Below, one piece after another: positions 1,511 through 27,669 of a DNA stretch of 32,000 nt; the first letter of the stretch is position 1, and the number at the start of each line of letters is the position of its first letter. The notes under the pieces are model-generated. The model was not told the DNA's origin, made no database searches, and saw only the letters and a program-made list of their open reading frames with translations. This DNA comes from Bryobacteraceae bacterium. GTDB taxonomy: Bacteria > Acidobacteriota > Terriglobia > Bryobacterales > Bryobacteraceae. Where the stretch lies: assembly GCA_035638575.1 (NCBI GenBank), contig DASQZT010000132.1:1-32000 (forward strand), written 5' to 3'. The position numbers and the translations under genes are program-made.

Positions 1511-1512
1511 TT

Positions 1513-3269: not shown

Positions 3270-3893
3270 TCATTTATATTTCCTGAGCACCGCCAGCAGG
3301 CGGCCTTGAATCATCACGTCCCGCGCCGGGACCAGAATCGGCTTGAGAGCGGAATTCGCTGGCTGGAGCCGTATCGTGTCTCCGCTTTCGCGGTAGAACC
3401 GTTTCAGCGTGGCGTCGCTCCCGGCTACCAGCGCCACCACGATGTCGCCGTCCCTCGCCTGGGCCACGCGCTCCAGCAGGATGAGGTCGCCGTCGCAGAT
3501 GTGCTCGTCGATCATCGAGTTCCCGCTCACCTCGAGGGCGTAAGTGTTGGGGTTGCCCGCAAAATCGGCGAAATTCAGCGTCTCCCGGTGCTCCACGGCC
3601 TCCACCGGCGATCCCGCCGCGATGCGCCCCAACAACGGGATTTCCGGAGCAGCGGGTCTGGTCCTCCGCGATTCCTGAAGGTACTTCGGAGTCAGCTCCA
3701 GCGAGCGGCTCTGGTTGAACCCGCGCTTGAGGTAATTCTTGCCCTCCAGCACCGAAATGTGCTTGTGCACGGTGGCCAGCGAAGCCAGATCCAGCCCTCG
3801 GGCGATCTCGTCGTAGCTCGGACAGTAGCCGTTATCGTCCAGGAAATCGGCGATGAAGTCGAGCACCTGCTTTTGCCGCTTGGTCAGTGCCAT
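3270..3893 (-). CDS. lexA: LexA SOS repressor
   Basis: N-terminal wHTH (MALTKRQKQVLDFIADFLDDNGYCPSYDEIARGL), cleavage region GRIAAGSPVEA, and S24 catalytic context (SGNSMIDEHICDGD ... TLKRF). The ATG at 3891-3893 was preferred to two in-frame ATGs 12 and 18 nt upstream. Confidence 0.92.
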   Translation of the reverse strand: MALTKRQKQVLDFIADFLDDNGYCPSYDEIARGLDLASLATVHKHISVLEGKNYLKRGFNQSRSLELTPKYLQESRRTRPAAPEIPLLGRIAAGSPVEAVEHRETLNFADFAGNPNTYALEVSGNSMIDEHICDGDLILLERVAQARDGDIVVALVAGSDATLKRFYRESGDTIRLQPANSALKPILVPARDVMIQGRLLAVLRKYK

Positions 3894-3983
3894 GTATGTC
3901 CTCATGTTCATTGTGGGCGAATAAAAAGGGAAAATCAAGCCTAAAGAAATTTCCCGCGCCGCCGATAGTCTTGGGGAGAGGCA

Positions 3984-4976: not shown

Positions 4977-4983
4977 GGCCGCG

Positions 4984-9639: not shown

Positions 9640-10491
9640 TTAACGCCGCCACCTGCGCAACGGTTTCCCGATCGTTAGTTCAGCCCCAGGCGTAGCTGGT
9701 GTCCCGCAGTCGTTGCGCAGCTCGTTGGGGTCGCCTGCCGGCCCCGGACTAACACTGTTGTCGATGCAGGGAATGGCGCTCAGATACGTGTAGATGGCTT
9801 GGATGTCGTAGTCGGTCAGGTTCGAAAAGGTTGGCCACGGCATGACTTGGAGAAGATCGCCGTTGGTATTATTGTCGGGTGAAGTGGGAATGCAGATCGG
9901 GGGCGGCGTGGTGCCTGCTGCAATTGTTGCCAGTTGATCTGCTGTACAGATTGGATGGACGTGATCGAAATCCGTGCCAGTTTTCAGGATCTGCATAAAC
10001 TGTGCAAGGGTCATCCCCCCTTCCGGCAGCCCAGTCTTGTCGGGTGTCAAATTTCTTGCGATCATGTCTGGTCCTCCGTACATGGAAGGCCCGGTTGGAG
10101 TCCCGACTGGACCGAAGTCCTGGCCCCCACTCAGGTAGACCGTCGGATCGACCTTCGCCGGCACGGGAAGCGGCCTTCCAAGAAAAAGATGCGTCGACGC
10201 AAAGTATGGGTTTCCGCCAGTGGCGTAATTGAAGTTTGGCGGCCCGCCACCGGTGTGGCAACCATTGCAGTCGCCTATCGCGTTGACCAGATAGCTGCCC
10301 AGTCCCACCAACTGCTGATCTTTTCCGGCCAGATTCAGCGGGACGGGCGCTATCGCGAGACCTATCTGGCTGAGCATCGCCTCGGTGTCCTGCGCTTGTA
10401 CGCGCGGGGAGCGGATCGATAGGCCCGCGATCAAGATTCCGAAACATACAGCACCTGCCGCTGCCCGTGATGCAAATTGTCTAGTCGTCAC
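9640..10491 (-). CDS. Secreted monoheme c-type cytochrome
   Basis: Single CNGCH heme site and the class-I-like C-terminal segment LLQVMPWPTFSNLTDYDIQAIYTYLSAIP. Signal peptide AGAVCFGILIAGLSIRSPRVQA. GTG at 10489-10491 is preceded by AAGGAGGAGGG. Confidence 0.8.
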   Translation of the reverse strand: MTTRQFASRAAAGAVCFGILIAGLSIRSPRVQAQDTEAMLSQIGLAIAPVPLNLAGKDQQLVGLGSYLVNAIGDCNGCHTGGGPPNFNYATGGNPYFASTHLFLGRPLPVPAKVDPTVYLSGGQDFGPVGTPTGPSMYGGPDMIARNLTPDKTGLPEGGMTLAQFMQILKTGTDFDHVHPICTADQLATIAAGTTPPPICIPTSPDNNTNGDLLQVMPWPTFSNLTDYDIQAIYTYLSAIPCIDNSVSPGPAGDPNELRNDCGTPATPGAELTIGKPLRRWRR

Positions 10492-10888
10492 TACCCTCCT
10501 CCTTTGTGGCGCGGAAATCCCGGGCCAATGGACGAAGAGTGTACCACACGCGCAAACACTCTTCAATCGGCGCCACGTTGGGAACGTTGGGATGATGAGC
10601 TGATTTGGCCAGAAGGACTCAATCGACAATCGCCTGGTCCACCGCGTTGGAAACTCTGTGCGCAACCGTCTCTCCTCGACAAAGTTTACCTCAGCGTCGC
10701 AGCCCGTCCCCGTTTTGGGACTCAGCCCTCGCCAGCAGTTAATTCTTCAGTGGGGCAAGATGGCCTGAAAGCCCGACCTGGGTTGGTATCCAGGGCAGGC
10801 CTTCGGTCATTTTCGGGGCCGCCGTCCCGGGCCGTTCGCAAGGCCGCGGTCCGGCGCCCCAGCCTCCGGCGCCCCACCGAAGCCGCTG

Positions 10889-13227: not shown

Positions 13228-13437
13228 TCAAGGGCGTGGCTTAACCGGGCGGGGCAGATTCGGGGGCGCCTTTGCCTTCTCCTGCGCCTCGCCGCGAATC
13301 GCGGCCCTGGCATCCGCCAGCAGGGTCGGTGGCCTGCCGCGGCGGTTTTTCCTCTGGAGACGTTCGAGGCTTAGAATTGCGGCATCCAGATGCTGCAATT
13401 CCTCGTGAAGTTGCTGGAGCACTTTTGCCAGGTCCAT
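13228..13437 (-). CDS. Small hypothetical protein (coiled-coil N-terminus, basic Pro-rich tail)
   Basis: AGGAGA lies 8 nt upstream of the ATG. Moderate G/C third-position bias. MDLAKVLQQLHEELQHLDAAILSLERLQRKNRRGRPP. Confidence 0.45.
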   Translation of the reverse strand: MDLAKVLQQLHEELQHLDAAILSLERLQRKNRRGRPPTLLADARAAIRGEAQEKAKAPPNLPRPVKPRP

Positions 13438-13570: not shown

Positions 13571-14035
13571 TCACACCGGACGCTGGAGGATTGCGTCTTG
13601 CGTCAACTCCGACGGGTCGGTGAAAGTCTGTAAGGAATCCAGCGATTCCAGGACGCGCTCGAGCAGGCTGTCGGTCTGCGAGACGGTGGTTTTCAAGACC
13701 TCGATGGAGTGGGCCTGGGTGGTAAGCCGCTCGTCCAGCGAGGCCATGGTCTTCGAGAGCAACTGCTCCATGGCTGCGACGATCTGCGCGGTCGAAGGAA
13801 CCTCCGCCAGCTTCGCGGAGTGTTCGTCCAAGCGCGCCTCGATCTGTGTGAACCGGTTGGTGTTAGTCGATTCCTGCTCGGCCAGCCGGCCCTCCAGGCC
13901 GGCCAGCTCCTTCTTCAGTTCCCTGGCAGCCGACGCATCGGCTCCACCCTCTTTGCGGGAGAGCGCCAAGGCGCCTAACGCAGCGCCCGCCAGGAAGATG
14001 GCCGCTCTCGGTACAAACGCGATCGCTTTATTCAT
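13571..14035 (-). CDS. Membrane-anchored coiled-coil protein of unknown function
   Basis: The ATG at 14033-14035 gives MNKAIAFVPRAAIFLAGAALGALALS (TM anchor), then heptad-rich sequence (ELKKELAGLEGRLAEQESTNTNRFTQIEARLDEHSAKLAE...). The longer ORF extension was rejected as low-complexity and overlapping the AT-rich intergenic region. Confidence 0.6.
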   Translation of the reverse strand: MNKAIAFVPRAAIFLAGAALGALALSRKEGGADASAARELKKELAGLEGRLAEQESTNTNRFTQIEARLDEHSAKLAEVPSTAQIVAAMEQLLSKTMASLDERLTTQAHSIEVLKTTVSQTDSLLERVLESLDSLQTFTDPSELTQDAILQRPV

Positions 14036-14240: not shown

Positions 14241-15332
14241 TTGAACCACGGCTCTAACTCGGAGGCTGATGCCGGCGGCGCGGGCGATGATCCGCTCCTG
14301 ATGGAGTGCGGCCGGAAGGGGCAGGTCCTCTTCATGACCGAAGCGGCGCGCGCCGCATTCGGACCCGCGGACAACCTCGCCGACGCCATGCGCTCGGTCG
14401 CGCCCTCCGGAACCGCCGCTCTCCTGAAACGCACTTCCACCGCGCGCTTCTCCCCGGTCCTTCAGGAGGGCGACAGCCTGTGGATCACCGCCGAGCTTGC
14501 CGGGCAGGCCGAAGTCACCGCCCGTGGGGAGGCCGCCGCCCTTCTCGACGTGCAGTGGGATTTCCTCCGCAATTACTTCCGCCTGCAAAATGTCGAGCGC
14601 GCGCTCTCTACCCGCACACTCCGTCTGCGCCAGGCAACCGGCGCGCAAACGCTCTTCCAAATCGAGCGCGAGCGCGAGCGCCTCGGCCGCGAAATGCACA
14701 CCGGCCTGGGCCAGACCCTTGCCGCGATCCGCCTGCAGCTCGAAATCATTGCCAGGCAATCCTCCGACCCGCCCTCCCAGGTCCAGCAGGCCTTGTCGCA
14801 CATCTCCATGCTCGCCACCGAGGCGCTGGATTACGTCCGCTCCATTTCCAAACGGCTGCTTCCGCCCGAGTGGCAACGGCTGTCGCTTGAAACCGCACTC
14901 GCCCAACTGTTTGAGATCAGCGGCGTTCCCCAGGGTTTCGAGGTCAACCTGCAACTCGAACCGCTGCCTCACGACCCCGCCCTCGAAGTCAAGGTGCTGC
15001 TGTACCGCGCCGCCCAGGAAGCCCTCTCCAACCTGGTGCGCCACGCCCGTGCCCGGCGCGTCGAGATGACGCTTCGGCACGATAGCGGCGTGCTGGTCCT
15101 GACCGTCCGGGATGACGGCGTCGGATTCGACGCCGAGCGCCTGTTCTCGGCCCCGGCGGGCGTTGCGTCCGGAATCGGGCTCCGCTCCATTCGCGAGCAG
15201 GCCGCTTCGCTCGGCGGCCAATTGCGTATACAAAGCGGCCCCAATGGAACTACACTGGAGGTCTCCGCGCCATTCACAGCAGGACAGGTGGACAGCGTGC
15301 CTCGGCCTGTCCCGCCAAAGAGGAATCGATGA
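14241..15332 (+). CDS. Cytoplasmic sensor histidine kinase (PAS-like N-terminus, HisKA_3, HATPase_c)
   Basis: H-box ERERLGREMHTGLGQTLAAIRLQLE, N-box AAQEALSNLVRHA, G-boxes VRDDGVGFD and GIGLRSIREQAASLGG. No TM helix. TTG at 14241 has AGGAGAG 6 nt upstream, with ATG 14301 as the alternative. The stop overlaps the regulator start (ATGA). Confidence 0.85.
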   Translation: MNHGSNSEADAGGAGDDPLLMECGRKGQVLFMTEAARAAFGPADNLADAMRSVAPSGTAALLKRTSTARFSPVLQEGDSLWITAELAGQAEVTARGEAAALLDVQWDFLRNYFRLQNVERALSTRTLRLRQATGAQTLFQIERERERLGREMHTGLGQTLAAIRLQLEIIARQSSDPPSQVQQALSHISMLATEALDYVRSISKRLLPPEWQRLSLETALAQLFEISGVPQGFEVNLQLEPLPHDPALEVKVLLYRAAQEALSNLVRHARARRVEMTLRHDSGVLVLTVRDDGVGFDAERLFSAPAGVASGIGLRSIREQAASLGGQLRIQSGPNGTTLEVSAPFTAGQVDSVPRPVPPKRNR

Positions 15333-16024
15333 AACCAGCAGACGAGATCACGTTGGTACTCGCCGACGACCACGCTATCGTGCGCGAAGGCATTGCCGCG
15401 TTGTGCACCGCCAATGGGCTGCACATTGTCGGGCAATGCGCTGACGGTCCCTCGGCGTTGGACATGATCACCAGGCTTAAACCCGATTTCGCCATCCTCG
15501 ACCTGCACATGCCCGGAATGACCGGCGTCGAGACCATCCGCCGCCTGCGCTCCTCCGGTTGCGCCACCAAGTTGATGGTCCTCTCCGTCAGCCGCGAAGA
15601 AGCCACCGTGCGCGAAGCTTTACTCTCCGGCGCCGACGCCTACCTGCTCAAGGACGGACCCTCGCGTCACATGCTGGATGCCATCAGCTATGTCCGGGAA
15701 GGCGGCGTCTGGGTCTCCCCCCTGCTCGGCGGCGCCGGCCTCTACGCCAAGGGCGGGGCGGCCCGGGCCGAAGACCCGCTGGCCGGTCTCAGCCCCCGCG
15801 AACTCGAGGTCTTTCAGTTCCTGGTGGACGGATTGCGCGCCAAGGACATCGCCGACCGGCTCGAAATCAGCCCCAAGACCGTGGACACCTATCGCGCCAG
15901 TCTTATGCGCAAACTAAACGTGCCCGACCTGGTCAGCCTGGTCAAGTTCGCAATCGAGCGCAATCTTACGAGCACTTCGCCCCAGAGGTCCAAGGAAAAC
16001 GCGAGGCCGGTCGCCTGGGAGTGA
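15329..16024 (+). CDS. NarL/FixJ-family response regulator (REC plus LuxR-type HTH)
   Basis: LVLADDHAIVREG...DFAILDLHMPGMTG...KLMVLSV form the receiver domain. LSPRELEVFQFLVDGLRAKDIADRLEISPKTVDTYRASLMRKL is the LuxR HTH. Confidence 0.92.
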   Translation: MKPADEITLVLADDHAIVREGIAALCTANGLHIVGQCADGPSALDMITRLKPDFAILDLHMPGMTGVETIRRLRSSGCATKLMVLSVSREEATVREALLSGADAYLLKDGPSRHMLDAISYVREGGVWVSPLLGGAGLYAKGGAARAEDPLAGLSPRELEVFQFLVDGLRAKDIADRLEISPKTVDTYRASLMRKLNVPDLVSLVKFAIERNLTSTSPQRSKENARPVAWE

Positions 16025-17220: not shown

Positions 17221-17754
17221 CTACTTCTTCTGCGCTCGCAGCCACTTCTCCAGCGTCGCAGTCTCCTCGGGTGTCATGCGTGGAACAGCCTTGCCGAGCA
17301 TCGTCAGGAACCAGTCGATCTCGAATGGCTCGACCGGGTGGCCGATGTTCCCGCCGGGCTTGCCGCCCTCCCCCGGCCGGATCGAGTTCACGATCAGCGT
17401 GCCCTGGGCATCCAGAAACGCGAAAAACGGCAGCCCGGACGGGCCGCCGAGGCGGGCCATCAGTTGATCGCCGCCGGGTGTGTTCAGCGCCTTCTTCTCG
17501 CTGGTTTCCTGCACGGCGAAATGAACCGTGACAAAGTACTTCTCGAAGATCTCTTGGATGCCGGGGGACTCGATGAACCTATCGAGTTGCTTGCACCATC
17601 CTCACCATGAGGCGTGAAAAATGGCGAAGACGGCGCGCTGGCCCTCGGCCGCCTGTGCCTTGGCCTGGTCGAGTAGAGCGGACGAGGAGGGCTGCGTCTG
17701 CGCGCCGGCCAGGACGGCGCCCAGCAGCACGCCGGCCAGAATCCTGCGAGTCAT
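17221..17754 (-). CDS. Secreted thioredoxin-fold protein with an in-frame TGA at the first redox position (candidate selenoprotein, motif W-U-G-W-C)
   Basis: ORFs 17602-17838 and 17221-17514 are in the same frame and separated only by TGA (17602-17604), with 29 further open codons between them. The joined product reads signal peptide MTRRILAGVLLGAVLAGAQTQ...AVFAIFHASW-[TGA]-GWCKQLDRFIESPG...PFFAFLDAQG. That is the F-x-A-x-W-C-G-W-C-K thioredoxin-like signature with TGA in place of the first Cys. Confidence 0.7.
17556..17601 (-). promoter_or_regulatory. SECIS-like stem-loop immediately 3' of the in-frame UGA
   Basis: mRNA reads UGA-GGAUG-GUGCAAGCA-ACUCGAU-AGGUUC-AUCGAGU-CCCCCGG-CAUCC. The upper stem is 7 perfect bp (17568-17587) and the apical loop AGGUUC contains GGU. 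The lower stem GGAUG/CAUCC starts at the nucleotide after UGA. The loop begins 21 nt after UGA. Confidence 0.5.
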
Positions 17755-18294: not shown

Positions 18295-20493
18295 ATGCGG
18301 ATTCCTTCGATAGTTTTCGCGGCAGGCCGTTACGCCCTGACGTTCGTGATAATCGCCGGCTCGGTGCTTCTGATGAGCGCACCGAAGAAAAACAGCTTTT
18401 CCAGGTTCGACAAGGCATATTACGCCGATCCCGCCACGGTGAATTTCGTGCTGCCGGGATTTGCCATCTCGATCGTCTCGGCCAAGATCGGGACGGACGG
18501 CACCATCAGTGTGGATTACAAGATCTCCGATCCCACGGGCCAGCCCCTGGATATTGCGGGAATCGTCACTCCCGGCGCGGTCTCGGTGAGTTTCCTCGCG
18601 GCGTATATCCCCGCGGGGCAGCAGCAGTACGTGTCGTACGCCAGCCGCATCTCGACCAGCATCAACGGGAAAGTCACCGCCACCCAGGCTGCCGCGGACT
18701 CCGGCGGCACAACGCAAGCCTCCAGCCTCGGCGAGTACGTCTACACCTTCAAGCAGAAGGCCGTGACCGCGGCGGGCGCGCCGTTTGATCCGAACGCCAC
18801 CCACCGCATCGGGATTTACGGCAGCCGGAACCTCACCGAATTCGACCTCGGCACGGACTACGCTTCCGCCACCTTCGACTTCGTGCCCGCCGGCGGAAAG
18901 CCCTCTCCCCGCGACGTCATCCGCACCGCCTCCTGCAACAAATGCCACGACCAACTGGCCTTCCACGGCGGTTCGCGCCGCGGCCTGGACCTGTGCATCA
19001 TGTGCCACCAGCCGCAGACCTCCGACCCGAATACCGGCAACACGCTGGACATGAAGGTGTTCGCCCACAAAATCCACATGGGCAGCAGCCTCCCCAGCGT
19101 GCAAGCCGGCACCCCTTACCAGGTTGTCGGGTTCCAAAACGCCGTTGCCGACTGGTCCACCGTGGTCCTGCCTTCCGACGCCCGGCGATGCGCCTTCTGC
19201 CACGAGTCCACTACCGGCGCAGCGCAAGCCAACGCCTGGCTTCAGAACCCCAACCGCGCCGCTTGCGGCGCCTGCCACGACGATGTCAACTTCGCCAGCG
19301 GCCAGAATCACGTCAATCTCCCCCAGGTGGACGATAGCCAGTGCAGCCAGTGCCACATCCCCAAGGGCGAACTGGAATTCGACGCCTCCATCATGGGCGC
19401 GCACACCATCCCCACGCAGTCCGCCACCGCGCCGGGCATTAATCTCACCATCGCCAACGTGGCCAACGGCGTCGCCGGCAAGGCGCCGACGGTGACCTTC
19501 ACTATCCGCGACAATTCCGGCGCCGGCATTCCCATGAGCGCCATGACCGGCGGTAACAACCGGCTGTACCTGGTGATGGCCGGCCCCACTTCGGACTACG
19601 GCTACACCAGCTTCGGTTCCGATGTCACCACTCCGGGCTACGTTTCCGAAAACGTGGTTCCCACGGCCAGTTGCAGCAACGATGGAACCTGCTCCTACAC
19701 TTTCACGCACTCCATACCGGCCAAGGCCACCGGCACCTATTCCATCGGCATCGAGGGCCGCCGCGGCATCACCCTGCTGCCCGGCACCACCCAGCAGATG
19801 ACCACCGATTACGGCGCCATCAATAAAGTCGTGAATTTCTCCGTGGACGGATCGCCGGTAGTGCCGCGCCGCACCGTGGTGAGCATCGCCAACTGCAACG
19901 GCTGCCACTCGTTCCTCTCGCTGCACGGCGAAAACCGCAACCAGATCGAGATGTGCGTGCTGTGCCACAACCCCAGCGAGAACGACCTCTCGCAGCGGCC
20001 CAGCGCCGTGGTAACCGCGTATAGGACCCTGCCGCCGCAGAGCGTCAACTTCGCCATGCTGATCCACAAGATCCACACCGGCGACGTGATGAGGACCCAG
20101 TACGGAACCGACTACATCGTCGTGGGATTCGGCGGAAGCACCAACGACTTTGGCGCTGCGTTCGCTACCGTCCCGGCTGCCATTCCCAACACCGGCGTCC
20201 GCTTTCCGGCCATGACCCCGATCGGCGGCATTGCCGACACCGCCAAGTGCTACATGTGCCACGTCAACAGTTCGGAAACGGTGTTCCCCATCGGCAAGAA
20301 CAACGTGGCCGATACGCAGGGCCCCTTGAATCCGGCGCCGGCCACTACTTCGGCCTGCACGGCTTGCCACCAGAACCTATCGGCGCTGGCCCACGCCGTA
20401 GCTCAAACCGATCCCAGGTTCGGCGAGAGCTGCGATGTGTGCCACGCCGCCGGCGCGGCTTTCGACGTCGACCAGGTGCACGCCGGAAAGTGA
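18295..20493 (+). CDS. mtrC: OmcA/MtrC-family decaheme c-type cytochrome
   Basis: Ten CXXCH sites in a 5+5 arrangement (CNKCH CIMCH CAFCH CGACH CSQCH / CNGCH CVLCH CYMCH CTACH CDVCH). Each pentaheme block follows a long heme-free segment. Both blocks open with C-x2-CH-x5-HG-x8-C-x2-CH. GGAGAA lies 5 nt before ATG 18295. There is an N-terminal hydrophobic anchor but no lipobox Cys. Confidence 0.9.
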   Translation: MRIPSIVFAAGRYALTFVIIAGSVLLMSAPKKNSFSRFDKAYYADPATVNFVLPGFAISIVSAKIGTDGTISVDYKISDPTGQPLDIAGIVTPGAVSVSFLAAYIPAGQQQYVSYASRISTSINGKVTATQAAADSGGTTQASSLGEYVYTFKQKAVTAAGAPFDPNATHRIGIYGSRNLTEFDLGTDYASATFDFVPAGGKPSPRDVIRTASCNKCHDQLAFHGGSRRGLDLCIMCHQPQTSDPNTGNTLDMKVFAHKIHMGSSLPSVQAGTPYQVVGFQNAVADWSTVVLPSDARRCAFCHESTTGAAQANAWLQNPNRAACGACHDDVNFASGQNHVNLPQVDDSQCSQCHIPKGELEFDASIMGAHTIPTQSATAPGINLTIANVANGVAGKAPTVTFTIRDNSGAGIPMSAMTGGNNRLYLVMAGPTSDYGYTSFGSDVTTPGYVSENVVPTASCSNDGTCSYTFTHSIPAKATGTYSIGIEGRRGITLLPGTTQQMTTDYGAINKVVNFSVDGSPVVPRRTVVSIANCNGCHSFLSLHGENRNQIEMCVLCHNPSENDLSQRPSAVVTAYRTLPPQSVNFAMLIHKIHTGDVMRTQYGTDYIVVGFGGSTNDFGAAFATVPAAIPNTGVRFPAMTPIGGIADTAKCYMCHVNSSETVFPIGKNNVADTQGPLNPAPATTSACTACHQNLSALAHAVAQTDPRFGESCDVCHAAGAAFDVDQVHAGK
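20383..20446 (+). repeat. Left arm of a 64-bp inverted repeat (inside the mtrC 3' end, encoding ALAHAVAQTDPRFGESCDVCH)
   Basis: The reverse complement of 20743-20806 matches this segment at 60 of 64 positions by hand alignment. Confidence 0.85.
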
Positions 20494-20546
20494 CCCTCGG
20501 GCGGTAAGTGTAGTTCGGTGTTTCGGTAGTTCGGCAGTACCGTACG

Positions 20547-20592
20547 GCCACCGGGCGGGTCCATCCGCGCCCGGTGGCTCGATGCTTTTTTT
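20547..20592 (+). terminator. Candidate intrinsic terminator after mtrC
   Basis: 11-bp stem GCCACCGGGCG / CGCCCGGTGGC (20547-20557 and 20568-20578). A T7 run at 20586-20592 is separated from the stem by 7 nt, which is not ideal geometry. Confidence 0.45.
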
Positions 20593-20609
20593 GCTAGCTG
20601 GAGGATTCA

Positions 20610-20816
20610 ATGCGGATTGCTTCTCCGGGTTTCGGGGTCGGCCGTTATCTCGCGGCGGTCGCCGGGCCGCTGGCTTTGTTGAGCGCGGCTAAGAAGACCG
20701 GATTCACGAAGTACGACAAGGCCTATTATGCCGATGCCGCCACGTGGCACACATCGCAGCTCTCGCCGAACTTGGGATCGGTTTGTTCCACGGCGTGGGC
20801 CAGCGCAGGGCAGTAG
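20610..20816 (+). pseudogene. Chimeric mtrC-paralogue relic: a 45-codon 5' fragment fused to an inverted 3' fragment
   Basis: GGAGG plus ATG, then MRIASPGFGVGRYLAAVAGPLALLSAAKKTGFTKYDKAYYADAAT. This parallels the mtrC N-terminus MRIPSIVFAAGRYALTFVIIAGSVLLMSAPKKNSFSRFDKAYYADPAT. From 20743 the sequence is the reverse complement of the mtrC 3' end. Confidence 0.6.
20743..20806 (-). repeat. Right arm of the 64-bp inverted repeat (on the minus strand still encodes ALAHAVEQTDPKFGESCDVCH-VAASA-stop)
   Basis: 60 of 64 nt identical to 20383-20446 in inverted orientation. The four differences give A-to-E and R-to-K or are silent. There are stop codons just upstream of the fragment on the minus strand. 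Confidence 0.85.
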
Positions 20817-20831
20817 ATTACAATTTAAGAA

Positions 20832-21866
20832 ATGACGACCTTCTTCCCGCTGTTCGGCCTGGGAACGGACAGGGCAAATTGTGCGGCGCGTCGCGCCCGC
20901 GGGGTGCTGAGCCCCCTGGGCCCGGCGGCGCGGCTGGCCGTTTTTGGGGCCGTATTTTTTATCGCAAGTGCGTGGGGCGCCCAGGAACAACAGGCGGCTC
21001 CCGCTCCTCCTGCCAAGGACTCCAAACCGGCGGAATTCGTCGGTTCCGAAACCTGCCAGGCGTGTCACGAGGACATCTTCAATGCCTTTCAGAAGAACCC
21101 TCACCACCTGGTGGAAACCGACAAGAAACGCGGCTGGGAAACCAAAGCCTGCGAATCCTGCCACGGCCCCGGAAGCAAGCACGCCGAGAGCATGAACGCG
21201 GCCGACATCCAGAATCCCGCCAAGCTCAGGCCCGCGGAGACAGACAAGGTGTGCCTGACGTGCCATCTGAATCAACCCACGCACGTGGGGCGTATTAACA
21301 GCAGTCATGCCAAGAACCAGGTGAGCTGCGTTGCCTGCCATTCGATCCACAAGAACGGGCCCAACGGCCTGGTGGAGCGCAAGGCCGCCGGCGTCAACCA
21401 GCTGTGCGCCAAATGCCACGCCGACGTGTGGGCCAGTTTCCAGAGGCCGTACCGGCACCGGCTGCCCGAGGGCGCCATGGCCTGCGTGGATTGCCACAAC
21501 CCCCACGGAAGCCTTCTGCCGCGTTCCATTCAGACCGCCAACGCCAACGAACCCGGCTGCTTCAAGTGCCACGGCGACAAGCGCGGGCCATTCGTGTTCG
21601 AGCACGCTCCGATGCGCCTCGAAGGCTGCGCCGCCTGCCATGAACCCCACGGCTCCGCCAACCCGCGCATGCTGACCCGGCACGAAGTGCGCTTCCTGTG
21701 CCTGGAGTGCCATTCCAACGTGCCCGGCCCGAAGCTTCCCGCCAACGGCACGCTGGCCACCGCGCCGCCGGGCTTTCACGACCTGCGCGAGCCGCGCTTC
21801 CAGAACTGCAACCTCTGCCACCAGAAGGTGCACGGCTCTTACGTCGACCGGGGGTTAACCAGATGA
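20832..21866 (+). CDS. mtrA: MtrA/DmsE-family periplasmic decaheme c-type cytochrome
   Basis: Ten CXXCH sites (CQACH CESCH CLTCH CVACH CAKCH CVDCH CFKCH CAACH CLECH CNLCH) in ~300 mature residues. The family-typical segment is GDKRGPFVFEHAPMRLEGCAACHEPHGS. Signal-like ARLAVFGAVFFIASAWG. The exact start is uncertain, with ATG 20832 or a downstream GTG possible. Confidence 0.9.
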   Translation: MTTFFPLFGLGTDRANCAARRARGVLSPLGPAARLAVFGAVFFIASAWGAQEQQAAPAPPAKDSKPAEFVGSETCQACHEDIFNAFQKNPHHLVETDKKRGWETKACESCHGPGSKHAESMNAADIQNPAKLRPAETDKVCLTCHLNQPTHVGRINSSHAKNQVSCVACHSIHKNGPNGLVERKAAGVNQLCAKCHADVWASFQRPYRHRLPEGAMACVDCHNPHGSLLPRSIQTANANEPGCFKCHGDKRGPFVFEHAPMRLEGCAACHEPHGSANPRMLTRHEVRFLCLECHSNVPGPKLPANGTLATAPPGFHDLREPRFQNCNLCHQKVHGSYVDRGLTR

Positions 21867-23929
21867 GATTGCGATTGGCTCTGATTCTGATCGGCGCCGC
21901 CGTCGCCGGCGTTGCCTTCGGCCAGGACGCGCCCGAGCAAGCTCCCGCCCCGCCAGCCCAGGCTGCCAAGCCGGCGCAGGCCGCCACACCGCAGGCCCCC
22001 GCACAGCCGGACCAGGCCCCCGCCAAGACCGAAGCCAAGCCCGCCGAAAACCCCGCGCCCCCCGCCGCCGAGCAGTGGATCTCCGGGAGCCTCGATTTCG
22101 GCTACCGCTGGCTGACCGATATCCACGGCAGCTCCGACGAATACCGCAGCGTCGTGAACCTGGGTGAAGGTCCCAAGCTGTTCGGTGTGGACCTCACCAT
22201 CCAGGATCCCAACAAGCGCCTGTTCGACCGCATCGACGCGCAGGCCTACGGGTGGGGCGGCGACCCCAACAACACCGCCCGCGTCAACGCGCGCAAGCAG
22301 GGTGTTTACGATTTCACTTTCGACTACCGCAACATCGCCTACTTCAACGCCGTCCCCTCGTACTCCAACCCGCTGGCGCCCGCCGGGTTCGACCAGCAGT
22401 CGTTCGACATCCACCGCCGCATGGCCGGCTTCCATCTGGACGTGTCGCCGGGCAAGCGCTTCAGCACGTACGTCGATTACGAACGGAACTCCGGCTCTGG
22501 CCACGGCATCGACACCTGGGTGCAGGATGCCAACAACTCGTTCGCCGTTCCCACCACCTTCCGGGATGGCACCGGCAACGCGCGCTGGGGCGAACACATC
22601 GAGTACAACCGCTTCCACTTCACGCTGGAGTTTGGCGACACCTCTTTCACGGACGACCAACAGGCCAACTGGAGCGGGATCAACCTGGGCAGCCGGACCA
22701 CGCCCCTTCCGTTCGGGGCGGCCAGTTCCTTGACCGGCCTGTCGCAGGCTTACGGCGTGCGGGGATCGGGCACTTACGAGAAGGGCCTGTTCACCGCTCG
22801 GCCGGCCTCCTGGATCGATGTCTACAGCCAGTTCCTCTTCAGCCAGCCGAAGACCACGGTGAACTATCAGGACCTGGCTTACGGCAACTTCGAGAATGCC
22901 GCCGCGCTGCTGCTCTATGTCGGGCAGTCGAACCTGGGCACCGGCGCGGCCATTCAGCCGCACGTCTCCGGTAATGCCGGCTTCGAGCTGCGCCCCATGC
23001 GCAGGCTGCGTGTCATCGAATCGTGGATGACCGACCGCTTCCACGACGCCTCCTCTTCCCTGGTCACCCAGCAGCTCCTGCTGGGCGGCGCCGGCCCCAA
23101 CCAGAACCTCCAGGCCGCCCTCAATTACGGCCAGTACGTCAACTACAACCAGCAGCAGACCGACGTGCTGTTCGACCTCACTTCGAAGATCACCCTGCGC
23201 GGCGGCTTCCGCTACATCTGGGGCGATGCCTCGGTCCTGGCCGGCGAGCTCAGCCAGTTGGGCACCCTCGTCTCCGGCCAACTGAGCCGCACCGTGGGGC
23301 TCGCGGGGCTGACGTTCCGCCCGTCGCAGAAGCTCTCGGTCAACCTGGATTACGAAGGCGCCTCGAGCGACCGGATCTACTTCCGCACCAGCCTGAACGA
23401 GTACAGCCGGGCACGGGCGCGGGCCCGCTACCAGGCCACCACCTCGCTGATGTTCCAGGCCAACTTCCAGGTGCTCAACAACCAGAACCCCGCTCCGGAC
23501 ATCAAGCTCGACTTTGAGAGCCGCAGCAACTCCCTGGCCGTCTACTGGACTCCGGCGAGCGCCAAACGCATCAGCATGATGGGCGAATACGACCGCTCCA
23601 CCCTCCGCAGCGACATTCAATACCTGGGGCTGTTCCTGGCGCCCGGCACCTCGTCGTACCGCGACAACGCGCATACGGCGAGTTCCGCCATCGACGTGGC
23701 CCTCCCCGGCTTGAATGGGGCGAAGCTCACGCTGGGCGGATCGCTGTTTCTCTCCGCCGGAAGCCGCCCGACCCACGACTATCAGCCGCTGGTCAAACTA
23801 TCGCTTCCTCTCCAGAAGCACGTATACTGGAACACCGAGTGGCAGTATTACGGCTTCGGGGAGTCGTTCTACTTATACGAGGGTTTCCGGACGCACATAT
23901 TCCAGACCGGACTCAGGGTGACCAGATAG
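21863..23929 (+). CDS. mtrB: MtrB/PioB-like outer-membrane beta-barrel protein (688 aa)
   Basis: The ATG overlaps the mtrA stop (ATGA). Signal peptide MRLRLALILIGAAVAGVAFG-QD, then a Pro/Ala/Gln-rich linker. About 600 aa follow with alternating amphipathic Y/F/W-G-rich segments (GSLDFGYRWLTD, YDFTFDYRNIAYFN, FHLDVSP, FTLEFGDTSF...). Size and position match MtrB. The family assignment rests on context and composition. Confidence 0.72.
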   Translation: MRLRLALILIGAAVAGVAFGQDAPEQAPAPPAQAAKPAQAATPQAPAQPDQAPAKTEAKPAENPAPPAAEQWISGSLDFGYRWLTDIHGSSDEYRSVVNLGEGPKLFGVDLTIQDPNKRLFDRIDAQAYGWGGDPNNTARVNARKQGVYDFTFDYRNIAYFNAVPSYSNPLAPAGFDQQSFDIHRRMAGFHLDVSPGKRFSTYVDYERNSGSGHGIDTWVQDANNSFAVPTTFRDGTGNARWGEHIEYNRFHFTLEFGDTSFTDDQQANWSGINLGSRTTPLPFGAASSLTGLSQAYGVRGSGTYEKGLFTARPASWIDVYSQFLFSQPKTTVNYQDLAYGNFENAAALLLYVGQSNLGTGAAIQPHVSGNAGFELRPMRRLRVIESWMTDRFHDASSSLVTQQLLLGGAGPNQNLQAALNYGQYVNYNQQQTDVLFDLTSKITLRGGFRYIWGDASVLAGELSQLGTLVSGQLSRTVGLAGLTFRPSQKLSVNLDYEGASSDRIYFRTSLNEYSRARARARYQATTSLMFQANFQVLNNQNPAPDIKLDFESRSNSLAVYWTPASAKRISMMGEYDRSTLRSDIQYLGLFLAPGTSSYRDNAHTASSAIDVALPGLNGAKLTLGGSLFLSAGSRPTHDYQPLVKLSLPLQKHVYWNTEWQYYGFGESFYLYEGFRTHIFQTGLRVTR

Positions 23930-23938
23930 GAGACAGCC

Positions 23939-25045
23939 ATGTTAACGGTTCGAGTGATTGCCGCGGGTGCGCTGTGGGCCTCGAGCGTGCTTGCCGCCAC
24001 CATCATTCCGGGTGACGCGCGCCGCGGCGAGGAGCTGTTCACCAGCGAGCAGTGCATCCAGTGCCATAGCCTGAACGGCAAGGGCGGCGCGCTGGCGCCC
24101 GACCTGGCGCGCCGCGTGGACCGCGAGTTCACTCCTTCGGTGATGGCCAGTCTCATGTGGAATCACGCGCCCGACATGTGGGCCGCGATGAAGAAGCAGG
24201 GCATCGTCAAGGGCACGCTGAGCCAGGAAGCGGCGGCCGACCTGTTCGCCTATTTCGTTTCCGCGCATTATTTCGAAAAGCCGGGCGACGCCGGGCGCGG
24301 CAAGCAGATCTTCGCCGCCAAGCACTGCGCCGGGTGCCACGGCATCGCCACGTCGAACGCGGCAGGCGCGCCTCCCGTGGCCAAGTGGGAGTCGCTGGCC
24401 GATCCCATTGTGATGGCGCAGCAGATGTGGAACCACGGCGCGCAGATGCGCGGCGCCTTCTCCCAGAAGAAGATACCCTGGGTGGCGCTGACCGCGCAGG
24501 AACTCACCGATATGCTGGTGTACCTGCAAAACCTGCCGGAAACCCGCCACCTGGCGCAGAATTTCGAGTTCCCGCCGACGAATTCGGGCGAGTCGCTGTT
24601 CCAGAGCAAGGGCTGCGCGGGCTGCCACAAAGGCTCGCTGGCGCTCGAGAACCGCCTGCACAACAAGACCCTGACGGAGATCGCGGTGGACATGTGGGAC
24701 CACCAGCCCAAGATGAAGAATCCGCCGCCCACGCTCTCCCAGGAGGAGATGCGCCAGCTCCTGGCCTACGTCTGGGCGCGCCAGTATTTCCGCGGCGAGG
24801 GCAACAGCGGCCGCGGCAAAAAGGTGTTCTCCGAAAAGAGCTGCGCCACCTGCCACAACGACGCGTCGAGCGGAGCCCCCACGCTGAGCAAGGGCAAGGA
24901 CGCCTACTCGGCCATCACCCTGGTGTCCGCGCTGTGGGAACACGGGCCGCGCATGCTCGACCTGATGGGCCGCAGGAATCTGCCCTGGCCGCGCTTCACC
25001 GCGCCGCAGATGTCCGACCTGATCGCCTACCTGAACTCGCTGTAA
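23939..25045 (+). CDS. Secreted tetraheme protein built from four tandem class-I cytochrome c domains
   Basis: Four CXXCH sites (CIQCH, CAGCH, CAGCH, CATCH). Each is followed ~30-40 aa later by [ML]W[NDE]H (MWNH, MWNH, MWDH, LWEH) and ends in an L-x-AY[LFV] helix. Signal peptide MLTVRVIAAGALWASSVLA. Starts 9 nt after the mtrB stop. Confidence 0.85.
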   Translation: MLTVRVIAAGALWASSVLAATIIPGDARRGEELFTSEQCIQCHSLNGKGGALAPDLARRVDREFTPSVMASLMWNHAPDMWAAMKKQGIVKGTLSQEAAADLFAYFVSAHYFEKPGDAGRGKQIFAAKHCAGCHGIATSNAAGAPPVAKWESLADPIVMAQQMWNHGAQMRGAFSQKKIPWVALTAQELTDMLVYLQNLPETRHLAQNFEFPPTNSGESLFQSKGCAGCHKGSLALENRLHNKTLTEIAVDMWDHQPKMKNPPPTLSQEEMRQLLAYVWARQYFRGEGNSGRGKKVFSEKSCATCHNDASSGAPTLSKGKDAYSAITLVSALWEHGPRMLDLMGRRNLPWPRFTAPQMSDLIAYLNSL

Positions 25046-25118: not shown

Positions 25119-25526
25119 GTGCAGATCACCGTCAATCCCTCCGACGAACTGCCGATCTACCGGCAGATGATGCGGCAGATCATCGAGGCGATCGCCGGCG
25201 GGAGATTGAAGGCCGGCGAGAAGCTGCCCTCGCACCGCGAGCTGAGCGAGCGGATCGTAGTTGCGCCGCTCACCGTGAAGAAGGCCTACGACGAGCTGGA
25301 AGCGCTTGGCTTCCTCGAAACGCAGCGCGGGCGCGGCACCTTTGTTTGCCTCGCGCTGCCTGAAATCGACCGTGAAGACCAGCTCCAACGCATCCGCCAG
25401 GATGGCCGCAAACTGCTTTCGCAGGCTCACCTTGCCGGCCTCCGTTTCTCCGAGCTGGTGGACCTCCTCCGAAGCGCCAACCGGGAACTGACTGGCGGCG
25501 CGCGCGACCAGAAAGAGACAGTATGA
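25119..25526 (+). CDS. GntR-family transcriptional regulator, YtrA-like short subfamily
   Basis: PIYRQMMRQIIEAIAGGRLKAGEKLPSHRELSERIVVAPLTVKKAYDELEALGFLETQRGRGTFV is a GntR wHTH. The short helical C-terminus is typical of YtrA-type regulators linked to ABC transporters. Confidence 0.88.
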   Translation: MQITVNPSDELPIYRQMMRQIIEAIAGGRLKAGEKLPSHRELSERIVVAPLTVKKAYDELEALGFLETQRGRGTFVCLALPEIDREDQLQRIRQDGRKLLSQAHLAGLRFSELVDLLRSANRELTGGARDQKETV

Positions 25527-26431
25527 CCCCTGTTCTTGAATTTCGGAACGTCTCCAGATCCTTTCAGAAAGGCGTGCCGGTCCTCGACGATGTCAGCTTC
25601 TCGATGGCCGAAGGCGAAGTGGTCGGCTTGCTGGGCCGCAACGGCGCGGGCAAGACCACGCTCATCCACATCGCCATGGGGTTGCTCTCCACGCACGGCG
25701 GCGCGGTGCGCGTCTTCGGCGTCTCGCCCTTCGACGACCCGGTCGCGGTCAAGCGGCGCGTCGGCTTCGTTTCCGAGGAGCAGGTCCTCCCGCCGCGATC
25801 CACCATCGCCGAGCTGATCGCATTTCACCGCTACCTCTTCGCCCGGTGGGACGACGCGCTGGAACGCCAGCTTCTGGACCGCTTTGCGCTTTCGCCATCC
25901 TCCAGGATCCACCGCCTGAGCAAGGGCCAGGCGCGTCAGGCCGCGTTGCTGTGCGCGGTGTGCCACCGCCCCGAATTGCTCCTGCTGGACGAGCCCGCCG
26001 GCGGCCTGGACCCCGTAGCCCGGCGCGAGTTCCTGGAGACCTCGATTCAATTGCTGAACCGCGAGGGCACGGCGATCCTGTTCTCCTCGCACCAGATGGG
26101 CGACGTGGAGCGCATCGGCGGACGCATCGTTCTCCTGAACGAGGGCAAGGTGCGCATCGATCGCGATCTCGACCGCATTCGCGAGGACGTCTGCGTCGCC
26201 ATGATCCCGCGCGCTTCGGTTCCGGACGCCGCCCGATTCGAAAGCCTTCCCGGCTGTCTCCGTGTCCGCGCGGTATTCGACGACTGGCACGTCGTGGTGG
26301 AAGGAGACCCCGACGCCGTGCGCGGCCGGTTGACGGCCTTGTCGCCCGCCAACAACATTCGATGCGTGCGGGTTCCGCTCGAAGAGTTGTTTATCGAGTT
26401 GGTGGGTGGGGAGCGCGAGAGGACGCCATGA
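25523..26431 (+). CDS. ABC transporter ATP-binding protein
   Basis: Walker A GRNGAGKTT, signature LSKGQARQ, Walker B LLLDEPAGGLD. ATGA overlap with the GntR stop. Confidence 0.92.
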   Translation: MTPVLEFRNVSRSFQKGVPVLDDVSFSMAEGEVVGLLGRNGAGKTTLIHIAMGLLSTHGGAVRVFGVSPFDDPVAVKRRVGFVSEEQVLPPRSTIAELIAFHRYLFARWDDALERQLLDRFALSPSSRIHRLSKGQARQAALLCAVCHRPELLLLDEPAGGLDPVARREFLETSIQLLNREGTAILFSSHQMGDVERIGGRIVLLNEGKVRIDRDLDRIREDVCVAMIPRASVPDAARFESLPGCLRVRAVFDDWHVVVEGDPDAVRGRLTALSPANNIRCVRVPLEELFIELVGGERERTP

Positions 26432-27669
26432 TCTACCAACTCATTCGGCGCGACCCGGCGTGGAAGGCCTTGCGATGGCTCGCGCTGGTAACCGCCGTGG
26501 TCTGGGCCTGGCCCGGGCCGATCGGCCAGCTCGGCGCGCTGATGGCGATGATGGGTCTCTTCGGCGGGATGCCGCACCGGCGCGCCAGCCGGTTCGAGGC
26601 GGCATTGCCGATTGAAGCCCGCGATCTTCTTCTGGCGCGCACGCTTTCCCTGATGGCGGTGATTTGGATACCGGCGCTCTCGGGCGCCGCGGGCATCGTC
26701 GCCGTGAGAGGGTTTTCGGCGTTGGCGGCGAGGCCGCTGGCGGTGGGAGCCCTGTGTACCCTAATGGCCGCCGTGGCGCAGACCGCCTGGCTGAAGGAAC
26801 TCGCCGGGCCGCAGTGGATCCTCTATCCTCTTTTCGTGGTGGTACCGGCCGCCGGCGCGCTGATGGCGGAGCATCCGGTCGCACTGGTCCCGCCGCTTTG
26901 CGCTTTGGCTGGCGTTGGGCTCTTCGTCCGGGCCTGGGCAGCCGTTCCACGGTCGTTCCAGGTGAGCAGTGCGGGTCTCGAGGTGGCTGGGCGGGCCGGG
27001 AGGCCTGCCCCACTTGCGGCACTCCGTTGGGCGCCGGTCTGGCGATCGGTCTGTTCCTGGCAGTACCTGTTTTTCGTCACCATGATGGGCGTTCAAACGG
27101 CCAGCGGCCAATGGCTGTTGACCCCTTTCTGGCTGTTGATCGCCTGGGCGGGTCCGCGCACGAGGACAAGCTGGCTGTGGGCGCTTCCGGTTGGAAGGCG
27201 CGCTCTTTTGTGGACCATGATGGGGCCGATACTCGCCGCGCACGTGCTGGGATATCTTGCCGGCTTCCGCGTCCATCGGCACGCGGCTCCGGTTTCCGAA
27301 CCCCGGGTCGTGGCCGTCACGCTGGCGGCCATTCTCGGTTGGGTGATGCTGACGATCCTGTTCTGTGTGCTCGCCGACTGGCGAGGCTTCGCCCGCATCC
27401 CGCGCCGGATCCTCACCACCGTTTTTCTTTCGCTCGCCGGACTCTGGTATGTGGCGAGCCTTGCCGCGCTGTTCTTCGCGCCGCACGGCGCCACGTGGGG
27501 GCGGGACGCCCTGGCGCAATTCGGCCGCACGGCGCCCATGGGCTTGCCCGCGCTGATCGCGGCCGCAGCGGCGGTTTTGATCGCACTCTACTGGGCAGTC
27601 GAGAAGGTGTTCAGCGAGCCCGATTTTGCGGACAAGCCCAGGGTGAGCCAGCCCGACGCATTTGCATGA
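26428..27669 (+). CDS. Polytopic membrane protein coupled to the ABC ATPase (putative permease component)
   Basis: ATGA overlap with the ATPase stop. About 10-12 hydrophobic helices across 413 aa. No recognisable named family. Confidence 0.7.
   Translation: MIYQLIRRDPAWKALRWLALVTAVVWAWPGPIGQLGALMAMMGLFGGMPHRRASRFEAALPIEARDLLLARTLSLMAVIWIPALSGAAGIVAVRGFSALAARPLAVGALCTLMAAVAQTAWLKELAGPQWILYPLFVVVPAAGALMAEHPVALVPPLCALAGVGLFVRAWAAVPRSFQVSSAGLEVAGRAGRPAPLAALRWAPVWRSVCSWQYLFFVTMMGVQTASGQWLLTPFWLLIAWAGPRTRTSWLWALPVGRRALLWTMMGPILAAHVLGYLAGFRVHRHAAPVSEPRVVAVTLAAILGWVMLTILFCVLADWRGFARIPRRILTTVFLSLAGLWYVASLAALFFAPHGATWGRDALAQFGRTAPMGLPALIAAAAAVLIALYWAVEKVFSEPDFADKPRVSQPDAFA

Follow-up and report, generated by a model that had tools for sequence, protein, structure and literature searches.

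A putative MtrC-MtrA-MtrB-type porin-cytochrome gene cluster with a four-domain class I cytochrome in a Bryobacteraceae genome from peat

Organization of the gene cluster

A 32,000 bp stretch of DNA from a Bryobacteraceae bacterium (positions 1 to 32,000 of contig DASQZT010000132.1, assembly GCA_035638575.1; hereafter the window) contains four co-oriented rightwards-transcribed genes between positions 18295 and 25045. They resemble mtrC, mtrA and mtrB of a porin-cytochrome electron conduit and are followed by a gene for a four-domain class I cytochrome c, here designated cyt4 (Table 1). The four products contain 10, 10, 0 and 4 CXXCH motifs respectively, a total of 24. The mtrA stop codon and the mtrB start codon share the sequence ATGA, and cyt4 begins 9 nt after the mtrB stop codon, an arrangement that suggests co-translation of mtrA, mtrB and cyt4. 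An earlier sequence-only reading of the window had described the same 24 heme sites in four co-oriented genes, with the same overlap and the same 9 nt gap, and had proposed an MtrC-MtrA-MtrB-type cluster with an added four-domain class I cytochrome. The layout is confirmed, and the assignment is supported by comparisons with hidden Markov models (HMMs), PDB sequences, folds and domains.

Ten CXXCH motifs in ~700 residues are far above chance, because ~0.01 would be expected (a rough estimate from the Cys and His frequencies). Three independent metagenome assemblies of the Joint Genome Institute (JGI) contain the locus without a single base change, and a fourth has it with a 1-nt difference; it is therefore not an assembly artefact. 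The source habitat is peat. A protein identical to the mtrB product is present in the NCBI record ‘Bryobacteraceae bacterium’, a metagenome-assembled genome (MAG) of the lineage Acidobacteriota, Terriglobia, Bryobacterales, and on contigs from JGI metagenomes that reach 241 kb in length. The contig is thus acidobacterial (Bryobacterales) and not proteobacterial, as the sequence-only reading had expected of the host.

Homologues were sought in one genome per species, and relatives of the cluster are present in 158 species-level genomes, from which the best 80 loci were fetched (L numbers). Downstream genes were counted in the 74 loci with enough downstream sequence; upstream genes and mtrC copies were counted in 52 loci, the upstream ones with at least 7.9 kb of flank.

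Table 1. Coordinates of the cluster genes, the spacer elements and other features of the window and of related loci.
Feature	Sequence	Coordinates	Strand	Basis or position
mtrC-like gene; predicted surface decaheme cytochrome, 732 aa	Window	18295–20493	+	TIGR03507, Pfam, PDB sequence matches
GC-rich hairpin followed by seven T	Window	20546–20594	+	53 nt after mtrC stop
Relic 5′ end of second mtrC paralogue (= MtrC residues 1–48)	Window	20610–20744	+	tblastn
Inverted relic 3′ fragment (= MtrC residues 697–722, heme-10 region)	Window	20729–20806	-	tblastn
mtrA-like gene; decaheme cytochrome, 344 aa, predicted periplasmic and barrel-inserted	Window	20832–21866	+	TIGR03508, PDB match
mtrB-like gene; predicted outer-membrane beta-barrel, 688 aa	Window	21863–23929	+	Pfam (marginal), AF2 fold, context
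cyt4; predicted periplasmic tetraheme cytochrome, 368 aa, signal peptide	Window	23939–25045	+	Pfam, domain alignment
HisKA_3 histidine kinase, soluble	Window	14241–15332	+	Pfam HisKA_3, HATPase_c
NarL/LuxR-type response regulator	Window	15329–16024	+	Pfam Response_reg, GerE
154-aa membrane-anchored coiled-coil protein	Window	13571–14035	-	N-terminal hydrophobic helix and coiled coil in translation
NfeD/SPFH (band 7) pair, LexA, PriA helicase, SPOR-domain protein	Window	716–2820 and 3270–7464	-	Ordinary chromosomal genes
GntR-family regulator, ABC ATPase, 413-aa polytopic membrane protein (no Pfam match)	Window	25119–27669	+	Directly 3′ of cyt4
~470-aa NapC/NirT-type gene	L076	10965–12395		Directly after cyt4
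~470-aa NapC/NirT-type gene	L077	11065–12513		Directly after cyt4
~470-aa NapC/NirT-type gene	L082	11074–12543		Directly after cyt4
~470-aa NapC/NirT-type gene	L087	11115–12599		Directly after cyt4
~470-aa NapC/NirT-type gene	L089	10972–12384		Directly after cyt4
~470-aa NapC/NirT-type gene	L085	9844–11325		Directly after mtrB, no cyt4

The predicted conduit proteins

The CXXCH motifs of MtrC form two groups of five (residues 214–354 and 534–717), the 5+5 OmcA/MtrC layout seen in the earlier reading, and the protein is predicted to have alternating beta (I and III) and pentaheme (II and IV) domains. It matches NCBIfam TIGR03507 (OmcA/MtrC) with 575 bits (cut-off 209.3) over profile positions 3–672 of 672, contains two matches to Pfam Mtrc-MtrF_II-IV_dom, and is related to the PDB sequences of MtrF (E 1.7e-21), OmcA (3e-20) and MtrC (1e-11). 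Domain III contains a CX5C pair (C460/C466; CSNDGTC), the sole non-heme cysteines of the protein, and the pair is present in every homologue listed. Those MtrC homologues with apparently nine hemes have an extra Cys pair with CX3C spacing, which would give a CX3CH variant site replacing the missing CXXCH. The N-terminus (MRIPSIVFAAGRYALTFVIIAGSVLLMSAPKK) has a hydrophobic signal or anchor and no lipobox Cys, which is a trait of Shewanella MtrC and OmcA that the TIGR03507 family model does not require. A lipobox-like Cys is present in a few relatives (L014 and L017–L020; VVGAC or LIAC, with VGAC in L014 and L018–L020) at the position where the window MtrC and most homologues have AGS, and MtrC lipidation appears to vary within the family.

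MtrA is the compact decaheme protein of the earlier reading and contains the MtrA/DmsE segment recognized there, with all ten CXXCH motifs lying within its 344 residues. It matches the NCBIfam DmsE family (TIGR03508) with 267 bits (cut-off 192.2), and residues 69–337 match chain A of the Shewanella baltica structure 6R2Q (E 8e-35), which we take to be MtrA of the Mtr complex, the file labelling the chain otherwise.

The family HMMs thus recognize MtrC and MtrA above threshold, whereas for the third protein the Pfam match is marginal and NCBIfam gives none. Pfam MtrB_PioB (PF11854) scores 25.9 bits (gathering threshold 23) and aligns with residues 123–273 only (profile positions 37–207 of 635), and no NCBIfam model matches. 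No MtrB is found among PDB sequences either with phmmer or with a 43-sequence family profile, and ten distant homologues scanned (27–33% identity) have no Pfam MtrB_PioB match. The protein begins with a signal peptide (MRLRLALILIGAAVAGVAFG/QD) and a disordered Pro/Ala-rich linker (approximately residues 21–67), followed by ~26–28 predicted strands; MtrB has 26. It contains no Cys and so has no N-terminal CXXC, which is present in gammaproteobacterial MtrB. Its AlphaFold2 (AF2) model (predicted local distance difference test score, pLDDT, 73) is an all-beta structure beyond residue 70, and DSSP assigns it 28 strand elements. The top Foldseek match of the model is MtrB (6R2Q_B; E 2.7e-14, template modelling (TM) scores 0.62/0.65, 12% identity), and the next matches are 22-strand TonB-dependent receptors and SusC (TM 0.36–0.44). 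The signal-peptide barrel that had been proposed from composition is accordingly a predicted barrel with the MtrB fold.

The fold match and the ATGA coupling to mtrA make the 688-aa protein a probable, though very divergent, MtrB-type sheath; because the PDB sequence searches found no MtrB, its membership of the family rests on fold and context. In related loci mtrA is located directly 5′ of the barrel gene wherever the flank is long enough. For the insertion of MtrA in the barrel with MtrC docked outside, supportive multimer models have been reported for EET2, a Bryobacterales Mtr-like cluster described below (Fiorito 2026, bioRxiv 10.64898/2026.05.27.727921).

The cyt4 product, which corresponds to ‘c-cyt group 5’ of Baker et al., consists of four tandem class I domains (residues 22–112, 113–208, 209–285 and 286–368) that are 26–36% identical to each other, and matches Pfam Cytochrom_C (102 bits) and Cytochrome_CBB3 (92 bits). 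Every domain has a CXXCH and an invariant (M/L)WxH...M motif (34 homologues). The nearest PDB relatives of the domain profile (best 60 of 215 matches) are bc1 QcrC, cbb3 CcoP and c552/c555-type cytochromes, QcrC and CcoP matching with E values of 2.5e-9 to 1.7e-8, and in the alignment the Met of the QcrC ‘NMP’ motif is the counterpart of the invariant Met. MtoD is absent from these best 60 of 215 matches, and the specific link to MtoD drawn in the sequence-only reading was not found. Foldseek returned no full-length structural analogue of the cyt4 model from the PDB, giving weak single-domain class I matches only. From the domain alignment the cyt4 hemes are likely His/Met-ligated, and hence probably of high potential. 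Class I hemes with His/Met ligation usually have positive potentials.

A terminator-like hairpin and a relic mtrC gene between mtrC and mtrA

The spacer between mtrC and mtrA is 338 nt long and contains two kinds of element. The first is a GC-rich hairpin (GGCCACCGGGCGGG...CGCGCCCGGTGGC) ahead of a run of T residues. A simple terminator scan did not list it; it was revealed by folding, with positions 20494–20610 giving a minimum free energy of -55.6 kcal/mol (z = -3.3) and none of 200 shuffled sequences folding as well. The hairpin looks like an intrinsic terminator or attenuator placed between mtrC and the rest of the cluster.

The second consists of two pieces of an additional mtrC gene. The 5′ relic retains a GGAGGA ribosome-binding site and an ATG, makes up the first 45 codons of a 68-aa open reading frame (ORF; 20610–20816), and is identical in four independent assemblies. 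In tblastn comparisons it is 52% identical to residues 1–48 of the window MtrC (E 1.5e-8) and 74% identical over 39 aa to MtrC of L008. The 3′ relic encodes ALAHAVEQTDPKFGESCDVCHVAASA on the minus strand, with the heme-10 region ALAHAVEQTDPKFGESCDVCH, and is 81% identical over 26 aa to MtrC (E 5e-9). The two pieces are joined head-to-head and are what is left of a second mtrC, removed by an inversion plus a deletion or a similar two-step event.

Comparable mtrC relics were not found in the other related loci, where the remaining short spacer matches are cross-matches to MtrA or, in L055, a 25-aa piece located right after the end of mtrC. The nearest relatives fetched, L090 and L091, have a single mtrC and no relic. 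Intact full-length tandem mtrC pairs precede mtrA in 16 of the 52 related loci (L009, L015, L030, L032–L034, L039–L041, L045–L047, L049, L071, L073 and L088), the two paralogues of L009 being ~64% identical. The intact mtrC of the window is nearer to the distal than to the mtrA-proximal copy of L015 and L088, the nearest two-copy loci, which fits a loss of the mtrA-proximal copy, the relic being too short for proof. The relic fragments are too short to be assigned to either copy of two-copy loci, as they score equally against the distal and the proximal one. The tandem pairs in 16 of 52 loci contradict the published lack of mtrC duplicates in Group 5 clusters (Baker 2022; see below), which reflects small sampling. 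The number of mtrC copies is evidently dynamic, and the relic directly supports the idea of paralogue loss raised in that paper.

Distribution and conservation

The barrel family comprises 917 clusters at 90% identity (among the candidates scored) and 1,208 representatives at 50% identity. Peat, bog, fen and palsa MAGs of Bryobacterales, Bryobacteraceae, Solibacteraceae or Terriglobia make up nearly all of the best 80 relatives. Across the ~80 related loci the gene order mtrC(1–2)-mtrA-mtrB-cyt4 is essentially universal, with cyt4 directly 3′ of mtrB in 70 of 74. The window cluster is 46–76% identical to other Bryobacterales clusters, and MtrB of L090 and L091 is 70–71% identical to that of the window. 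The barrel is 58–73% identical across the best 120 of 917 homologue clusters, and cyt4 is 70–80% identical across the best 120 of 2,211; this conservation fits purifying selection on both.

The sequence-only reading had suggested an unusual or laterally acquired module. The cluster is not unusual in this lineage, with relatives in so many species-representative genomes and a family already published. Recent horizontal transfer is rejected: GC content ranges from 58 to 70% with no compositional difference between the cluster and its flanks, mobile-element genes were not seen next to the cluster, and its synteny extends through the order. The lack of a GC break together with the order-wide synteny therefore indicates an order-wide, largely vertically kept trait and no recent import. 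Complete or partial clusters of the acidobacterial type are also located on two contigs binned to other phyla, L052 (titled Verrucomicrobiia bacterium) and L084 (titled Gemmataceae bacterium), and one NCBI cyt4 record is named ‘Verrucomicrobiae bacterium’; either mis-binning or genuine transfer would account for these.

Deep-branching Bryobacterales/Terriglobia relatives, in which MtrB is 46–53% identical to that of the window, have a gene for a membrane multiheme cytochrome of ~470 aa beside the cluster, usually directly after cyt4 (Table 1); the same kind of protein is also encoded in L081, L083, L086 and L069. It is anchored by two or three transmembrane helices at its N-terminus, contains an FCGxxCH(V)M motif along with five CXXCH motifs, matches Pfam NapC/NirT with 28–31 bits (gathering threshold 24.1) and resembles NrfH. 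This protein is a candidate CymA-like quinol dehydrogenase, and as such the missing entry point for electrons. As noted from the sequence before, the window has no such gene: a check of ORFs across the 32 kb revealed no NapC/NirT- or CymA-type gene and no multi-heme ORF other than those of the cluster.

Relationship to published clusters

MtrCAB ‘Group 5’ was described as exclusive to Acidobacteriia/Bryobacterales, with a predicted periplasmic tetraheme cytochrome immediately 3′ of mtrB in all members, no inner-membrane quinone oxidoreductase nearby and no mtrC duplicates (Baker, Conley, Gralnick and Girguis 2022, mBio, PMC8805035), a description that rested on 5 genomes. The Bryobacterales ‘EET2’ Mtr-like cluster has been modelled, found in SPRUCE and Stordalen MAGs, and reported as transcribed throughout anoxic peat profiles (Fiorito et al. 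2026 preprint, 10.64898/2026.05.27.727921). Acidobacteriia were also found to be dominant among the MtrC/MtrA/MtrB hits from tropical soils (Epihov et al. 2021, PNAS, PMC7980381), and the cultured Bryobacteraceae member Paludibaculum fermentans reduces Fe(III) (PMC8407742) and is reported to carry OmcA/MtrC genes (PMC8841776).

Taxonomy, architecture and the level of identity shared with the other Bryobacterales clusters place the locus in the published Group 5/EET2 family, and it introduces no new concept. It shares with that family its lineage, the order mtrC-mtrA-mtrB-tetraheme, the lack of an adjoining CymA-type gene, and an MtrB-like protein that public records call ‘hypothetical’. It departs from Group 5 as published in the tandem mtrC genes of related loci, the relic in the window, and the NapC/NirT-type cytochrome that adjoins the cluster in deep-branching relatives. 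Beyond the published papers the present analysis adds the mtrC relic and the duplication dynamics, a linked two-component system, the NapC/NirT-type candidate, and the description of cyt4 as a class I array of likely His/Met type.

Like the Shewanella MtrCAB complex (6R2Q), the cluster has a four-domain 5+5 MtrC with a domain-III Cys pair, a decaheme MtrA and a large barrel of MtrB fold, in the same gene order C-A-B and presumably with the same outer-membrane wiring. The domain-III pair of Shewanella MtrC has CX8C spacing, compared with CX5C here. Unlike in Shewanella, sequence identity is low (12% for the barrel model to 6R2Q_B), MtrC of the window and of most family members has no lipobox Cys, the periplasmic partner is a class I tetraheme protein rather than a small tetraheme protein of class III type, and no cymA is located nearby.

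The MtoAB-MtoD-CymA system of Sideroxydans and Gallionella and PioAB of Rhodopseudomonas likewise combine an MtrA-family decaheme protein with an MtrB/PioB-type barrel, and in mto clusters, too, a class I c-type cytochrome gene adjoins the barrel gene. MtoD is a monoheme protein with bis-His ligation. Unlike MtoD, the class I protein here has four domains with QcrC, CcoP and c552/c555-type proteins as its nearest solved relatives; unlike in Mto and Pio, an MtrC-type surface cytochrome is always present, and the evidence on direction leans the other way. Tandem class I domains are a feature shared with QcrC, the diheme cytochrome cc of actinobacterial bc1, and with CcoP of cbb3, and the ‘NMP’ Met of QcrC has its counterpart in cyt4. 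Unlike these, cyt4 is a soluble four-domain array with an additional invariant W-x-H motif, and is encoded in an mtr cluster and not with bc1 or oxidase genes.

Proposed function and direction of electron flow

Taken together, these features make it fairly probable that the cluster encodes an outward electron transfer conduit of the Group 5/EET2 type, delivering electrons to Fe(III) or peat organic matter. The gene content, family assignments, predicted barrel fold, conservation, synteny and relic are shown by the data above; assembly of the complex, location of the proteins, heme ligation, direction of flow and regulation are inferred. In such a conduit the MtrB-like barrel would lie in the outer membrane and sheathe the decaheme MtrA, which would pass electrons to the surface decaheme MtrC docked on the outside. 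In the periplasm, cyt4 with its four putative His/Met-type class I domains would link the conduit to the inner-membrane respiratory chain, a role equivalent to that of CctA/FccA in Shewanella. The quinol-oxidising entry point would be encoded elsewhere in the genome, the two-component system upstream (Table 1) would control expression, and the terminator-like hairpin together with the lost second mtrC would set mtrC apart from mtrA-mtrB-cyt4. With such a conduit the bacterium would, under anoxia, respire Fe(III) outside the cell or redox-active organic matter of the peat.

Outward flow is favoured by the constant presence and frequent duplication of a surface MtrC, whose domain-III Cys pair recurs in all listed homologues, and by the linkage of deep-branching clusters to a NapC/NirT-type membrane cytochrome. 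It is further favoured by the cultured P. fermentans, which reduces Fe(III) and reportedly carries OmcA/MtrC genes, and by the reported transcription of EET2 in deep anoxic peat. Bryobacterales Acidobacteriota are among the dominant bacteria of peat and acidic soils. An expressed Mtr-type conduit of Bryobacterales has been put forward as a leading candidate to explain how bogs produce CO2 anaerobically without methane; Fe(III) or particulate organic matter would be respired through it (Fiorito et al. 2026 preprint).

Several points weigh against this interpretation. The function of acidobacterial Mtr clusters is read from homology and context, not from experiment. The 32-kb window has no quinol dehydrogenase gene, and its MtrC has no lipoprotein Cys of the kind found in Shewanella MtrC. 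The MtrB/PioB sequence model barely recognizes the barrel and no NCBIfam model does, the family profile of the barrel misses MtrB in the PDB, and its AF2 model is of moderate confidence only. A cyt4 of His/Met class I type also fits electron uptake, as in Mto-like Fe(II) oxidation, at least as well as it fits export.

Inward flow is accordingly the most substantial of the alternatives, and is judged rather unlikely. An Fe(II)-oxidising or electron-uptake conduit of the Mto/Pio kind would carry electrons from MtrC/MtrA through cyt4 to a chain of bc1 or alternative complex III (ACIII) and an oxidase, or the conduit could run in both directions depending on redox conditions. The similarity of the cyt4 domains to QcrC and CcoP, with the invariant Met aligned to that of ‘NMP’, speaks for this, as carriers of this kind normally deliver electrons to terminal oxidases; at redox interfaces in peat, Fe(II) and O2 are available together, and neither the window nor its crown-group relatives have a CymA-type gene. 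The class I cytochrome MtoD, moreover, accompanies Fe(II)-oxidising mto clusters (PMC8805035), although it lies outside the best 60 of the 215 PDB matches to the cyt4 domains. An MtrC-type surface decaheme is not known from the characterised MtoAB and PioAB modules of Fe(II) oxidation, whereas in the present family MtrC is universal and is often encoded twice. Transcription of the cluster is reported from deep anoxic peat, a setting in which no oxidant for Fe(II) is obvious, and a cultured member of the Bryobacteraceae is an Fe(III) reducer. The NapC/NirT-type cytochrome of deep-branching relatives also argues against inward flow, and does so weakly, as this family can in principle run in reverse. 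A more specific and still less likely version has cyt4 as a high-potential adaptor that couples the conduit to bc1/ACIII and an oxidase and not to a CymA-type partner, with bidirectional or inward flow (oxidation of Fe(II) or reduced humics) at acidic pH. Were this so, crown-group Bryobacterales would have lost the NapC/NirT-type gene when rewiring the cluster, with the deep-branching relatives retaining it, and differences in the number of mtrC copies, with tandem pairs in some loci and the relic in the window, would represent ongoing tuning to different extracellular substrates. The redox potential of cyt4 would bear on the direction of electron flow.

The remaining alternatives have very little probability. 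The conduit might serve some other redox task between periplasm and exterior, such as a DmsEF-like supply to an extracellular or outer-membrane terminal reductase, or be a decaying, non-functional cluster. The best family of MtrA is indeed the one that includes DmsE, but DmsAB-type or other reductase genes occur neither in the window nor in the ~80 related loci, and the DmsEF-like role is rejected because no reductase genes accompany the cluster. Gene loss has clearly affected the locus, as the spacer with its dead mtrC copy and terminator-like hairpin attests; however, the relic touches a redundant paralogue only, each of the four genes is intact, with tight spacing and strong conservation, and the cluster family is transcribed in situ (Fiorito 2026 preprint). 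That the 688-aa protein is a generic barrel, a porin or TonB-dependent-like transporter merely adjacent to the cytochromes, is equally improbable. The marginal and partial Pfam match, the lack of an NCBIfam model, the failure of even a family profile to find MtrB by sequence in the PDB, and the distant family members that match no Pfam model would all be consistent with such a protein. Its model nevertheless matches MtrB by a wide margin over the other barrels listed (TM 0.44 or less), the size and predicted strand number are those of an MtrB-like protein, its start codon overlaps the mtrA stop, and in related loci with sufficient flank it is encoded between mtrA and cyt4. The outward conduit of the Group 5/EET2 type remains the favoured interpretation.

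Regulatory and neighbouring genes

A soluble histidine kinase and a NarL/LuxR-type response regulator are encoded upstream of mtrC on the same strand, and homologues of the kinase or the regulator are similarly placed in 30 of the 52 related loci; from this linkage the two-component system likely regulates the cluster. The gene for the 154-aa coiled-coil protein is divergent from the kinase gene, has only weak coiled-coil Pfam matches, and has homologues at the same position in 13 of 52 loci, alongside the two-component system. In L090 (12271–12909) and L091 (7128–7805) a Crp/Fnr-family regulator gene is located directly 3′ of cyt4, where the window has the GntR and ABC-transporter genes, and may provide a second regulatory input. 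The window genes at 25119–27669 are kept only in identical or near-identical contigs and not in other relatives, and for that reason probably have nothing to do with the conduit.

The remainder of the window fits a chromosomal and not a mobile-element context (Table 1), the listed genes being followed downstream by FtsH and TilS genes. Of the neighbourhood clues that the sequence-only reading had used, PadR is indeed encoded here. The 69-aa leftwards-transcribed ORF at 13228–13437, taken as the protein that had been called DUF2934, has no Pfam match at E≤0.01, and the GC content regarded as very high is the same in the cluster as in its flanks. An Rfam scan of the whole window gave nothing at gathering thresholds.

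Two leftwards-transcribed genes of the window encode secreted proteins with features of redox proteins. Divergent from and upstream of mtrC is a thioredoxin-like gene (17224–17754) that is called as two ORFs of 50 aa and 97 aa in one frame, split by a single TGA (17602–17604). Read through the TGA it gives a 177-aa secreted thioredoxin-like protein with a Pfam Thioredoxin_7 match of 47 bits that extends across the TGA and an active site of W-[TGA]-G-W-C-K, on which grounds it is a candidate UxxC selenoprotein. That TGA is followed after 3 nt by a hairpin with the loop AGGUUC and an ordinary folding energy (z = -0.4); the gene is absent from the other loci examined. The second, at 9640–10665 and ~8 kb upstream of the cluster, has a single CNGCH motif, a later MPWP and no Pfam match, and may encode an unannotated monoheme c-type cytochrome.

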